A model generated the notes under the pieces. It made no database searches and was not told where the DNA came from. It saw nothing but the letters and a program-made list of their open reading frames with translations. A DNA stretch of 64,000 nt from an uncultured bacterium (lineage in GTDB: Bacteria > Babelota > Babeliae > Babelales > Vermiphilaceae): the NCBI GenBank assembly GCA_963702025.1, contig OY969699.1, positions 672,001 to 736,000 of the forward strand, given 5' to 3'. The position numbers and the translations under genes are program-made. The number at the start of each line of letters is the position of its first letter. Within the stretch, counting starts at the first letter, position 1. Below are positions 1,091-62,607 of this stretch, in pieces.

Positions 1091-1690
1091 TTATTTTTTA
1101 TGCAAACTTTCATGAGTTTTTATATAGCTTGCTGCGATCCAACCATGGCAAATGGAACATTTTTCTTGCGCAATGCCACTTACAAGTCTTGTTGGTGATG
1201 CTAACCCATAGAAGGCGATTTCTTCATCGGTAGGTGTGGGAATTTCAAGGAAGCCTTCTTCCTGTGTAGGAGCTGGCCGCGTCGCAGGTTTTGCAGGTTT
1301 TTTTGATTCCTTTGGCAAGTTGTTGAGCATATTCCATGCTTGCGTAGTATCACGCAAGAATACTTGCGCCGTGCTGTGATTAAGCTCGGTTTCATAAAGA
1401 GCAATGTGATAGGCACATCCATTCTGTGTGTTAAACAGCTGGTGGCATGCAGAACATTGATATGGCTTGCATAAATGTTCATTATAATGGCTCGTTTCAG
1501 GTTTGCCCACGCATATGATTTTTGAGCATATTTTACAGGTGGTTTTAACCGTTTCTACCTTTCTTTTTTTGGTGTTTTCGGCTATTTTTGGTGCGAAAGC
1601 ATTGTTATTTTCTGTTGGTTTTTCCATCCCTTGTAAAGTGAAAGAAAAGCAAAGAAGCAGAGCAATGGGGTATATTTGGTTCATTTTCAT
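1091..1690 (-). CDS. Exported C2H2 zinc-finger protein with NLS-like KKRKV
   Basis: Signal peptide then G-MEK; KKRKV; C-x2-C-x12-H-x3-H finger, KPYQC linker, second partial finger, C-terminal C-x2-C-x11-H-x3-H. Confidence 0.75.
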   Translation of the reverse strand: MKMNQIYPIALLLCFSFTLQGMEKPTENNNAFAPKIAENTKKRKVETVKTTCKICSKIICVGKPETSHYNEHLCKPYQCSACHQLFNTQNGCAYHIALYETELNHSTAQVFLRDTTQAWNMLNNLPKESKKPAKPATRPAPTQEEGFLEIPTPTDEEIAFYGLASPTRLVSGIAQEKCSICHGWIAASYIKTHESLHKK

Positions 1691-2035
1691 AATTTCTCCA
1701 TTTAGAAATATTGTTTACTTACTCTTTATTCTATATTAATAATTCAGTTTGTCAATGTTTATATTGGCTACAAAACAGCTATTTTTGCTTATTTTCATTA
1801 AAACAGGTGAATAATCTTCGCGTGTCAAATTATGGGATTTTACACATGAGTTTGACGAAGGGGGCTACTCACCATCTGTGATAAGTAACCTTTTCAAGCA
1901 GATTATGAATTTCACAATTCGACTTTAGTGATAAAACTCCCTAAAATCCCCTTTTTTTAGTAGGTTAATAAGACTACCCTTGCTTAAAAATTGCAATTTG
2001 CAATAAAATGATAGTAAGAAGATCAAGAGGGGGAG

Positions 2036-2992
2036 ATGAAGAAAGTAGTAGGAGCCTTATTTTATCTACTCGTAGCAATGCCAGGGTATGGCTATTTATA
2101 TAAAGACAAAGATGTGTATACGCTGCGCAAATGGAACCCGGAGCGTCAGCGATATCGTTATTGGGTAGGTTTTTGTGATTTTCATGATAAAACGAACAAA
2201 GCTAATTTTGCCCAACGAAGAAAAATAGAAGAATTATTGCCGCAACGCGCACGGGATAGCTTTCATGTTCAAGTGGAGGATTTAAGTTCCCCCAATGATG
2301 AGGGCCGTCTGGGTTGTGGTTCATTTTATATCAATTCGAGTGTTGGCATTTTGGCCGGCCTTGCATCTTTTTGCAAAGAACACGCCGTGCCGGTGCAAAA
2401 TGTTGAATATCGCTACTGCCGTGTGGTGGCGCTGGGGCCGGTAATTAATAATATTGCAGCCGATCCTTTTATTTTTCCTTCAACAAAGCGGATGATGATT
2501 TCTCATTTGATGCAAGAAATTGAACAGACCTATTCTGAATTGATGCAGAGTAATGATAATCCTATATTTAAAAATCTTTTGTCCCAAAAATTTCAAGAAA
2601 TTGCTGATACCATGAAAAAAATGGATCTCTGGCGATATCAGAGTAAAAGTATAGCTGATTATTTGAGTGCGTTCTCTTTGCCAATGCAACGGCTTGATAT
2701 TGTAAAAAATTTATTGACCTTTGATGGTATTTTAATTGGTTTCAAATTAGTTGACGGTGTTATAAAAGTGCCCGATAAAGATATGATTGTTGCCTTTGCC
2801 GGCGGCACACACATTGCCGAAGAATATGCATTATTGCAAAGAATTGATGGCTGGGAACCGATAAAAATGGGCAATCATCCATTGGAACGAGCCGCATCGG
2901 TTTCGCAGGATATTGCCGCGCCGGCCGTTGGGTATGGCATTAAACCGGCACCTCTTTCTATTGAATTGCTCGAGCACTATCTAAAGAATTAA
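2036..2992 (+). CDS. Hypothetical exported protein
   Basis: 318-aa ORF, GAGGGGGAG RBS, hydrophobic N-terminal signal peptide. Confidence 0.7.
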   Translation: MKKVVGALFYLLVAMPGYGYLYKDKDVYTLRKWNPERQRYRYWVGFCDFHDKTNKANFAQRRKIEELLPQRARDSFHVQVEDLSSPNDEGRLGCGSFYINSSVGILAGLASFCKEHAVPVQNVEYRYCRVVALGPVINNIAADPFIFPSTKRMMISHLMQEIEQTYSELMQSNDNPIFKNLLSQKFQEIADTMKKMDLWRYQSKSIADYLSAFSLPMQRLDIVKNLLTFDGILIGFKLVDGVIKVPDKDMIVAFAGGTHIAEEYALLQRIDGWEPIKMGNHPLERAASVSQDIAAPAVGYGIKPAPLSIELLEHYLKN

Positions 2993-3951
2993 TAAAAATT
3001 CTTTGTCAAATAGGCGCGTCCTGAATCGCCAAAAATAATCAAGCCCAGATCATCATGCGTAAAATGTTGTTTGGCATATTCATAGGCAGCATAAGCAACC
3101 GCGCCGCTACTTGGCCCGATAAGCAGCCCATATTTTGACGCCATTATTTTAAGCATCGCCAGCGCATTATCATCCGATACGGGAATATAATCATCTATGA
3201 CCGCTTTGTTGAGTACCGGTGTTTCAAAATCGATGCCCATTCCTTCCACTTTATACGGTTTTGGATTGCCATTTGTTGAGCGCCACGATGTATCAGAATC
3301 TATTGCGTGCACTTTAATAGCCTGATTTTTCTCTTTTAAATATTTGCCCACACCACTAATGGTGCCGCCCGTGCCCGCTGCGGCAAAATAATGCGTAACC
3401 AGCCCCTTTGTTTGGTTCCATACTTCAGGTGCTAATGAGCGGTAATGCGCTTGGGCGTTTTGCACGTTAAAATATTGATTGAGCATAACGGCGTTGGGTG
3501 TTTTTTGCAAAATGGCAACTGCTTGGCTGTGATAACTTTGCGGATCTTCAATAAATGAGGTTGCCGGACACATGATCACTTGAGCGCCGTATGCCTTAAT
3601 GGTTTGAAATTTTTCTTGGCTAATTTTTTCTGAGACAGTGACAATAACCGTATATCCTTTTATTGCCCCAATCATTGCCGTTGCCGCACCTTGATTGCCC
3701 GATGATGCTTCAATAATAGTGCCCCCTGGCTTGAGTGCGCCGGTGCGTTCTGCTTCTTCAATCATAAATAATGCTGAACGATCCTTCATTGATCCACTCG
3801 GGTTTAAATATTCTAATTTTGCATAAATATTTCCCGGACAATCAAAAGGAATTCTGATAAGTGGCGTGTTGCCGATGGCATTGAGCAGGCCGTCATGCAT
3901 GCCCGCTTGCTGTTGAAGTGCTGACTTTTTTTGTTGGATCACTAGGTCCAT
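2989..3951 (-). CDS. PLP-dependent cysteine synthase / cystathionine beta-synthase family
   Basis: IGNTPL, KLEYLNPSGSMKDR (PLP lysine), EASSGNQG, GTGGTISG. Confidence 0.93.
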   Translation of the reverse strand: MDLVIQQKKSALQQQAGMHDGLLNAIGNTPLIRIPFDCPGNIYAKLEYLNPSGSMKDRSALFMIEEAERTGALKPGGTIIEASSGNQGAATAMIGAIKGYTVIVTVSEKISQEKFQTIKAYGAQVIMCPATSFIEDPQSYHSQAVAILQKTPNAVMLNQYFNVQNAQAHYRSLAPEVWNQTKGLVTHYFAAAGTGGTISGVGKYLKEKNQAIKVHAIDSDTSWRSTNGNPKPYKVEGMGIDFETPVLNKAVIDDYIPVSDDNALAMLKIMASKYGLLIGPSSGAVAYAAYEYAKQHFTHDDLGLIIFGDSGRAYLTKNFY

Positions 3952-61988: not shown

Positions 61989-62011
61989 AGATGTTTCTTT
62001 CTGGTTATCCT

Positions 62012-62296
62012 TTACTCGTCTTTTGATGATTTTTCTTCACGATGAATGCTCAAAGCGCCATGGCTTTTTAACCAGGCAATTATCTTTTTGTTTTTTTCTT
62101 TGGCAAAATAGTCGTAGAGTCTTAGATCTTCTAATTTATATAAAACCGTTTTTCCCGTTTGATCCAATTCATTAATCTGTTTGCCCTTGGTAAGAAAAAG
62201 ATTCATGATTTCATATTGTTTATCTTCATTTTCGTGCCATTTTAAATAGCAGACCATATAAAAGAGATCTTTGGGATCCGATTGTATGCTCATCAT
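62012..62296 (-). CDS. Short ankyrin-like ORF, possibly the 3' half of a split gene
   Basis: LFLTKGKQINELDQTGKTVL...WLKSHGA; overlaps the upstream ORF by ATGA. Confidence 0.5.
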   Translation of the reverse strand: MMSIQSDPKDLFYMVCYLKWHENEDKQYEIMNLFLTKGKQINELDQTGKTVLYKLEDLRLYDYFAKEKNKKIIAWLKSHGALSIHREEKSSKDE

Positions 62297-62607
62297 ATGA
62301 TTTGTTTCCGATCAACTCCTTCAAGTTCATCGGCAATTTGAGGAATAATTTCAAGTAATCTTTTGTTGCATTCCGTGGCAGCATTTTTGAATTCTACTGC
62401 AAGGGTTTTTATCTTTTTTTCTGTTGGTCCGATTAAGAATTCATAGAGTACATCTATTCGTTTTCTTTTTAAATAGGCCTTAAGGGCCGGTGTTAAATAG
62501 TTATGCACAGTTAACGCTTGCCCGATTGTCATTTCATGTTCATCTTCTTCCATGGGATGAAAATACAATGGTGTTACTAATGCGAAAAGAAAAATGATTT
62601 TTTTCAT
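62293..62607 (-). CDS. Exported hypothetical protein, possibly the 5' half of a split ankyrin gene
   Basis: Signal peptide P-MEE. Confidence 0.55.
   Translation of the reverse strand: MKKIIFLFALVTPLYFHPMEEDEHEMTIGQALTVHNYLTPALKAYLKRKRIDVLYEFLIGPTEKKIKTLAVEFKNAATECNKRLLEIIPQIADELEGVDRKQII

Follow-up and report, generated by a model that had tools for sequence, protein, structure and literature searches.

In a 64,000-nucleotide stretch of a genome of the order Babeliales (G000:C1:672001-736000, the window in what follows), and across the rest of that genome, many predicted exported proteins place a methionine directly after their leader, frequently followed by glutamate and by proline at the fourth position. 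Sequence comparison establishes that the resulting motif, Met-Glu-[Lys/Leu/Met]-Pro, marks fast-evolving, eukaryote-like and orphan proteins in one Babeliales clade. About one protein in six is predicted to carry an export signal followed by a mark of this Met-Glu-x-Pro type, and most of these proteins look like mimics of host proteins. The genome is a single contig of 1,596,033 bases with a G+C content of 39% and a completeness of 95%, and the phylum sample used for comparison consists of 61 Dependentiae genomes, all of one order (Babeliales), in 15 coded families, f1 being that of the window. For the window's cysteine-synthase gene, the nearest relatives are in metagenome-assembled genomes labelled Candidatus Babeliales or Dependentiae.

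The excess of Met is visible without any assumption about leaders. Counted by residue position over the 1545 open reading frames (ORFs), Met peaks at position 20, where it is found in 97 ORFs, whereas positions further in than residue 40 have about 28 each; within positions 17-26, a Met followed by Glu, Asp, Gln or Asn reaches 52 ORFs, with about 5 as the baseline. Leaders and cleavage sites were predicted by an in-house hydropathy and -3/-1 heuristic rather than by SignalP, and this heuristic over-calls, its first filter being passed by 832 of the 1545 ORFs. When the cleavage site is guessed blindly, by the -3/-1 rule alone and without regard to residue +1, 156 of the 569 leader-bearing ORFs have Met at +1, compared to a Met background of 1.9% (binomial p 6e-130). 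The class that we analyse further contains the 334 of 1545 ORFs in which a leader, a small residue and a Met follow one another and no later membrane segment is present. The first-pass annotation of the window had held that sites lying elsewhere than directly before the Met would speak against its proposal; for the M-[EQ] class (194 ORFs) the blind, predicted site coincides with the Met in 101 of 182 ORFs, 12 having received no blind call. The density of M[EQDN] ORFs varies from 1 to 18 per 64-kb bin across the genome, and the window overlaps bins of 17 and 16. It is therefore among the densest stretches for the Met class, yet no exception.

Aligned on the Met, 379 ORFs give a consensus sharper than M-[E/D/N/Q], namely [A/G/S]-M-E-[K/L/M]-P, with the predicted cut before the M. 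Upstream, positions -19 to -16 are rich in Lys and positions -15 to -7 in Leu, Ile and Phe; L, A, I and S are the residues of position -3, and position -1 is A in 40%, G in 23% and S in 20%. Downstream, Glu accounts for 46% of position +2 (7.4-fold) and Gln for 10%, Lys for 23% of +3 and Pro for 25% of +4 (5.8-fold). Among the 334 class members, Glu (162) and Gln (32) are enriched at +2 while Asp (16) and Asn (16) are at background. In the 162 M-E cases, Pro is found at +4 in 67 (background 4.2%) and Lys at +3 in 62. The 30 residues that follow the motif are enriched in Glu, Lys, Gln and Pro and depleted in Gly, Phe, Tyr and Cys, as in a polar linker. The exposed ends had been assigned beforehand to the M-E/D/N/Q substrate class of eukaryotic NatB: the enrichment of Glu and Gln agrees with this assignment, whereas the background levels of Asp and Asn do not, and the Pro at +4 is left unexplained by it and likewise by N-degron logic. 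NatB, in addition, works on nascent chains and not on delivered proteins.

The leaders of the Met class have a median length of 20 residues, a net charge of +2 and a best 9-residue hydropathy of 2.7, with the n-region and core of the Sec type. In the unfiltered set (476 ORFs), position -1 is occupied by A in 150, G in 86 and S in 75 (311 A/G/S), the small residue that signal peptidase sites show, and position -3 by L in 116, A in 76, I in 67 and S in 55. Compared to Met-less leaders they are alike in hydrophobicity, charge and mature Cys content, with a median length of 20 versus 22 residues; relative to the genome's own Met-less leaders, the Met class has more Gly at -1 and more Leu at -3.

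A Shine-Dalgarno (SD) core lies 3-12 nt upstream of the first ATG in 134 of 247 class genes (341 of 802 for the first ATG of other long genes), while the second ATG, which encodes the motif's Met, has one in 0 of 247, against 67 of 1349 internal Met codons. The bases 5' of the second ATG consist of T/C-rich codons for hydrophobic and small residues, with no -10-like A/T or promoter-like pattern. Translation includes the leader, and these counts lend no support to an internal start led by an SD. Composition and start signals together identify the Met-class leaders as ordinary signal peptides of the Sec type, with translation starting at the first ATG. The first-pass annotation had named a second in-frame start as an alternative, with a check for a ribosome-binding site, so that the second ATG would initiate a cytoplasmic isoform. 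An in-frame ATG is always present at this place, and some public gene calls start from it, but the SD counts and the T/C-rich codons upstream both run against an isoform, which we regard as the least probable of all explanations and hardly credible.

A few leaders are GTG-started, or have a weak n-region, 5' of an apparent M-E start. In three paralogues (G000:C1:312365-312790, 315596-316024 and 362887-363465) the first ATG is that of the motif's M-E, and the in-frame sequence upstream is a typical leader, apparently GTG-started. The public calls for P0002, P0005, P0011, P0022, P0024 and P0077 begin at the conserved Met or within a leader remnant. In the family of the window gene 4323-5786, gene finders may choose the second ATG.

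We compared the carriers by Pfam over the first ~0.8 Mb of the genome and the window. The 137 M[EQDN] proteins in this range include Ank_2 in 34, beta-propeller or WD40 repeats in about 8 and leucine-rich repeats (LRR) in 3, together with proteins combining IBR and ankyrin or RING and propeller, C2H2 zinc fingers, a chagasin-type inhibitor and NADAR; 71 of the remaining 95 have no Pfam family at E 1e-6. In contrast, the 127 leader proteins that lack the Met contain GNAT (6), outer-membrane protein (OMP) beta-barrel (4), secretin (2), thioredoxin (2), pilin-type N_methyl (2) and Ank_2 (3). In an independent phmmer screen, leader and Met are found in 54 of 75 ankyrin-like proteins versus 280 of 1470 others (odds ratio 11), and about ten more of the 21 unflagged ankyrin-like proteins show the junction by eye. 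The contrast between eukaryote-like and housekeeping exported proteins that had been proposed as a check is borne out: the Met is concentrated in eukaryote-like and orphan proteins, and not in porins, secretins or thioredoxins.

Outside the window, leader and Met-Glu are found in the proteins L147:15237-16745, L175:2463-3935, L167:6611-7819 and L148:17358-17702, which carry IBR and ankyrin, RING and propeller, C2H2 zinc fingers and a chagasin-type cysteine-protease inhibitor; domains of the host ubiquitin system and of nuclear type thus sit behind a bacterial export signal. A short stretch resembling [I/L]PSL..LC lies 10-40 residues past the Met in several propeller and ankyrin proteins (4323-5786, 13413-16589, 44404-45918 and 54392-56242) and in homologues (P0004, P0008, P0010, P0015 and P0016). 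It is similar to a BC-box or F-box adaptor motif; a Pfam scan of the window proteins gave no SOCS-box or F-box match.

The first-pass annotation had called for repeating the count in related genomes. We sampled relatives as stretches of 40-100 kb and counted ORFs with a leader, a small residue and M[EQDN] among all called ORFs; because the samples have this size and the density is uneven along genomes, low counts do not prove absence. Within the genus of the window the counts are 11/94 and 10/103 (G006), 16/116 (G007) and 21/109 (G005), and in other genera of its family 6/93 (G009), 10/84 (G016), 17/78 (G017) and 4/83 (G035). Family f11 gives 13/94 (G028) and 2/72 (G032). Ten other families give 0/72 (G023), 2/95 (G030), 0/95 (G021), 2/86 (G022), 1/88 (G020), 1/68 (G027), 1/45 (G024), 1/44 (G019), 0/40 (G026), 1/71 (G061), 1/58 (G067) and 2/63 (G060). 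In 100 kb of E. coli K-12 the rule flags 1 of 84 ORFs, a cytoplasmic enzyme, and the blind +1 residue is Met in 0 of 16. The rule is frequent in the majority of the genomes sampled from the window's family and in one of the two f11 genomes; in the ten other Dependentiae families, which are similar in composition, and in E. coli it stays close to background.

The conservation of the Met indicates that the pattern is under selection. Between homologues of this genome and of samples from six same-family genomes, Met is present in both partners in 17 pairs, in this genome only in 7, in the relative only in 7 and in neither in 36 (odds ratio 12), and the median identity of the pairs sharing it is 34%. 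The syntenic G006 homologues of six proteins of the window's effector island (23-44% identity) all keep the Met while their leaders differ. For 4323-5786, a word-index search found 2 homologues and an exhaustive search 22 family-length representatives, of which 16 have a leader or remnant and the Met, 5 start exactly at M-E and 1 is without it. Homologues from other families bear leaders with Ser or Ala at the position of this genome's Met, and in the family of 36240-37130 leaders are universal among the homologues whereas the Met is confined to some of them. Thus the Met arose by substitution on leaders that were already present and was then retained; it is not a leftover start. SD-supported cytoplasmic proteins start with M-E in 3 of 105 cases and with M-E-x-P in 0, and therefore the motif is not the usual N-terminus of this genome.

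These data bear on the possibility that the Met is a relic, that is, the start codon of genes that were once cytoplasmic or were acquired, frozen in place when a leader was added later and without any function. The five representatives that begin exactly at M-E and the lineage-specific, possibly acquired nature of the carriers are what such an origin would leave behind. It is nevertheless very improbable in our judgement: the other-family homologues already have leaders, cytoplasmic M-E starts are rare, the leaders are no spreading DNA cassette, and the Met persists at 23-44% identity amid a diverging leader where decay would be expected. A mobile leader cassette was examined by all-vs-all blastn of 226 class genes and rejected, as only 21 of 25,425 pairs share 5' but not mature similarity, with matches of 20-78 nt mostly in the promoter region. 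No special promoter emerged; the enriched upstream 7- and 8-mers are ordinary -35/-10-like words.

The genome encodes one signal peptidase LepB, a 332-aa frame at G000:C1:839966-840793 whose TIGR02227 match is in two parts. The LepB of the window's family has an insertion relative to TIGR02227, the match being split after about position 104, and in several other families LepB has a contiguous match or is present as two long copies. LepB type was rejected as the determinant of the Met rule, which the split or contiguous state of the match does not follow. A preference at the level of export, in which the signal peptidase or translocon of the clade works best with Met-Glu at +1/+2 and the residues have no later role, would agree with the insertion in the family's LepB, and acidic residues are common at +2 after bacterial signal peptides. 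However, among the proteins of this genome for which another family holds a homologue, 10 of 70 have the Met, and the homologues themselves have it in the same proportion (7 of 49), which is the background of the heuristic; porins, secretins and thioredoxins lack the motif, and genomes with a similarly split LepB are at 0/95 (G021), 1/45 (G024) and 1/71 (G061). Because conserved exported proteins ignore the rule, a general processing optimum fits less well, and we consider it improbable.

Enzymes that could modify the exposed end were searched for in 31 genomes. The glutaminyl cyclase families PF05096 and PF04389 match 0 of 31 and 1 of 31 (G029, outside the window's family), and M24 peptidases are present as two copies in nearly all 31 genomes, without a family pattern. 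Pyroglutamate formation after removal of the Met, which could explain Glu and Gln at +2, was rejected as far as known enzymes are concerned, the cyclase searches having given no match in the window's family. The exported GNAT at 23197-23760 was considered as an N-terminal acetylase and is not supported, its sequence matching in only 4 of 31 genomes; acetyl-CoA is not expected in the periplasm. Three GNATs with leader-like N-termini and no junction Met lie inside the island (21234-22079, 23197-23760 and 27000-27827), and exported GNATs are unusual.

For transport, the genome contains two GspF-type platform genes and two secretins, while searches of this 95% complete genome for VirB4, FHIPEP and TssC gave no match. 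Published comparisons credit TM6 genomes with a type II system that has two copies of gspD (PMC4776705), in agreement with the present genome.

We tentatively favour the reading that M-E-x-P is a second-step sorting tag at the cleavage site of host-directed proteins, which we hold to be possible though short of probable. The single LepB would cut directly before the Met, at the predicted site, and the exposed M-E-x-P end would then be read by a dedicated factor. This factor would most likely carry proteins bound for the host from the periplasm to the outside, by way of vesicles or of either of the two type II/type IV-pilus-like machines, while periplasmic and outer-membrane residents would stay without the tag. 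The preference for Glu and not Asp, the Pro at +4 and the restriction to carriers of host-directed appearance point to recognition by a particular binding site. In its more specific form, M-E-x-P would be the address label of a second export step that takes hundreds of eukaryote-like proteins from the periplasm to a protist host, in a bacterium without type III, IV or VI systems; we regard this form as unlikely.

Alternatively, M-E-x-P may sort nothing and act as a protective cap that keeps the protein stable once it has left the bacterium for the host cytosol or vacuole; it would then be a Dependentiae counterpart of the Bacteroidetes Q-rule. An N-terminal Met followed by a non-hydrophobic residue is not destabilising, a Glu in second place protects the Met from methionine aminopeptidase, and x-Pro restricts trimming. 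The confinement of the motif to host-directed-looking proteins would suit a cap, and its lineage restriction could mirror different hosts. On the other hand, Asp would do as well as Glu and yet is not enriched (16 of 334), and the cyclase and M24 searches revealed no modifying enzyme. The residues usual at +1 (Ala, Ser, Gly and Thr) do not destabilise either under the Arg/N-degron pathway, so the logic of a cap does not require Met. We consider a cap somewhat unlikely, and place sorting slightly above it.

This ranking is weak because of the closest precedent, the Q-rule of Bacteroidetes. There, Gln at +1 of signal peptidase I substrates is cyclised to pyroglutamate, and a sorting role was reportedly tested and unsupported, stabilisation being found instead (PMC5837995, PMC10653852). 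The precedent thus acts in the way that a cap would (PMC10653852). Further points weigh against a sorting tag. We identified no reader or receptor, and cleavage before the Met is a prediction from a crude leader predictor. The sampling of relatives is uneven, with 13/94 against 2/72 in f11 and 4/83 in G035 of the window's own family. Within the genome, a leader without the Met is seen by eye in about 9-10 of the 75 ankyrin-like proteins, and the Met is present in one cell-wall enzyme, the D-Ala-D-Ala dipeptidase 26201-26974 (Met-Ser). Other Babeliales families have leader-bearing proteins without the motif, and for a parasitic member of the phylum, Chromulinavorax destructans, published work gives predicted signal peptides for 44% of coding sequences and 78% of ankyrin-repeat proteins, with Sec as the stated route (PMC6561590). 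Because of these leaders without the motif and the 78% of ankyrin proteins, the motif is unneeded for export phylum-wide.

The Met rule resembles the Q-rule in being confined to a lineage, in governing the residue directly behind a Sec signal peptide, in being visible in proteome statistics and in producing an unusual neo-N-terminus. It differs in having Met with an extended E-x-P, in concerning only the host-directed-looking part of the exported proteome and not most substrates, in being limited to some families of one order and not a whole phylum, and in the lack of a glutaminyl cyclase homologue in the window's family. The Q-rule itself does not describe this genome, where 35 of the 569 blind calls have Gln at +1 and 156 have Met. 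Compared to classical Sec and signal peptidase I substrates, the positive n-region, the hydrophobic core, the small -1/-3 residues and the one LepB are shared, and the +1 Met is among the differences (156/569 here versus 0/16 in the E. coli sample).

In Plasmodium PEXEL and oomycete RxLR, a short motif after the signal peptide is found in many unrelated, fast-evolving, host-directed proteins. The likeness to M-E-x-P is one of position after the signal peptide and of distribution only, so that a delivery role here would be an analogy; moreover, this is a bacterium, and its motif adjoins the cleavage site whereas theirs lies ~20 residues downstream. We know of no dedicated protease or translocon for M-E-x-P. 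In the lipoprotein +2 rule and the lipoprotein export signal of Bacteroidetes, the residues directly after the cut decide the final compartment. Here there is no Cys at +1, so the Met-class proteins are not lipoproteins, and a sorting role would be a matter of interpretation. A lipobox was rejected, since +1 is Met by class definition and Leu at -3 with Gly, Ala or Ser at -1 is only superficially similar. A type IV prepilin leader was also rejected: the hydrophobic segment precedes the cut, Gly occupies -1 in 23%, and Glu is at +2 and not at +5. The true pilins of the genome are false hits of the automatic rule.

In our literature search, whose coverage mostly excluded subscription journals, no description of the Met rule was found. 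The Chromulinavorax destructans paper has 0 occurrences of 'methionine' and 'N-terminal' (PMC6561590), and the authors of PMC10653852 call the Q-rule exclusive to Bacteroidetes. Besides the Q-rule, the Met-Glu-x-Pro rule is the only lineage-specific residue rule after Sec cleavage that we met in the literature surveyed. It is specific to its lineage, and we found no publication on it.

The mark may reveal how Dependentiae handle their host-bound proteins. These bacteria are widespread protist parasites with tiny genomes, much of which is given over to ankyrin, WD40 and similar proteins, and to our knowledge they have no known injection machine. By the sequence mark, about 330 candidate host-directed proteins can be told apart from the housekeeping proteins of the periplasm, which gives a handle for effector prediction and for the annotation of gene starts. 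If a second export step were true, it would be a bacterial counterpart of PEXEL/RxLR, and the effector repertoires of the clade would be readable from sequence alone.

In the window itself, the first-pass annotation had counted 34 ORFs with leader, small residue and Met. We recovered the same 34 from the translations (Table 1), with the split that it had claimed of 20 ME, 4 MQ, 3 MD and 7 others (MY, ML, MT, MS, MV, MA and MH), and all eight junctions that it quoted are present. The automatic rule flags 33 of 64 window ORFs, 18 being ME. Compared to the reading by eye it misses 29943-30497 and 43296-44111, chooses an earlier Met in 31909-32799 and adds one doubtful ORF, 2036-2992 (LVA-MPG). 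Nine additional window ORFs have a leader without the Met.

Table 1 Window ORFs in which a leader is followed by a small residue and Met. The hyphen marks the predicted junction; positions are those of the window.
Feature	Position	Strand	Junction
ORF, no Pfam family	1091..1690	-	LQG-MEK
Beta-propeller family, Met kept in homologues	4323..5786	-	ICS-MQK
ORF, no Pfam family	8840..9184	+	ICA-MEK
Ankyrin protein	10617..11156	+	ITA-MQD
Ankyrin protein	11230..12000	+	LLG-MYF
BTB + beta-propeller protein	13413..16589	-	SFP-MEM
Paralogue of 4323-5786, ATG start at 18728	17280..18728	-	LVS-MEM
Beta-propeller-like protein	18907..20913	+	IYA-MEQ
ORF, no Pfam family	22222..22644	-	VNG-MEE
Ankyrin protein	24142..25014	-	LCA-MEK
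ORF, Met kept in G006 homologue	25036..25446	-	SAA-MLR
Ankyrin protein	25446..26144	-	LQA-MTL
D-Ala-D-Ala dipeptidase (Peptidase_M15), the set's one classical cell-wall enzyme	26201..26974	-	CHA-MSQ
Small ORF, weak ubiquitin-like match	28357..28746	-	GFA-MQQ
90-aa ORF	29605..29877	-	AQA-MVP
Ankyrin protein	29943..30497	-	HFA-MEP
ORF, no Pfam family	30648..31211	-	CFS-MES
ORF, no Pfam family	31543..31896	-	LNG-MAN
Ankyrin protein	31909..32799	-	SFA-MDP
ORF; homologues all with leaders, Met in some	36240..37130	-	TFT-MEK
HIT-like + HAD hydrolase	37994..39166	-	SHP-MHR
Ankyrin protein	42108..43211	+	IKA-MDL
ORF, no Pfam family	43296..44111	-	LMA-MEG
Beta-propeller-like protein, M-E kept in G006 homologue	44404..45918	-	SLG-MEK
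ORF, no Pfam family	47425..48591	-	LIG-MDT
Large ORF	48644..50923	-	LGA-MET
Paralogue of 48644..50923, M-E kept in G006 homologue	50941..53112	-	AQA-MEK
ATP-grasp-like protein	53331..54377	+	AWS-MQK
Ankyrin protein	54392..56242	+	LYP-MEK
BTB-like + WD40 protein	56256..58010	+	LNG-MEM
Ankyrin protein	58131..59687	-	LVA-MET
Ankyrin protein	59730..60818	-	ATG-MEK
Ankyrin paralogue	60924..61988	-	AVG-MEQ
ORF, no Pfam family	62293..62607	-	FHP-MEE

Genomes of the same genus share the housekeeping flanks of the window (cysteine synthase, ABC transporter, OPT transporter). The effector island at ~8000-62600 is mostly missing or replaced in G007:C2:620001-720000 and G005:C1:10001-110000, and G006 retains some of its members at 23-44% identity. 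Two tandem paralogues of ~237 aa in the island (45948-46664 and 46681-47394) have no leader and no Pfam family.

An Rfam scan of the window gave no family reaching the gathering score. A G+C-rich mosaic repeat (up to 61%) lies between two effector genes at 16740-17290 and again at 12515-12666 and 44235-44289; its modules of 40-256 bp recur at 82-98% identity in at least 15 other places of the genome, without an Rfam match, and the ORFs listed within it (16925-17305) are probably not genes. The window further contains a DDE_Tnp_1 transposase at 9171-10295 and an IS630-type transposase at 41069-41951, which is split over overlapping frames with the HTH part at 41580-41951 and DDE_3 at 41069-41698.

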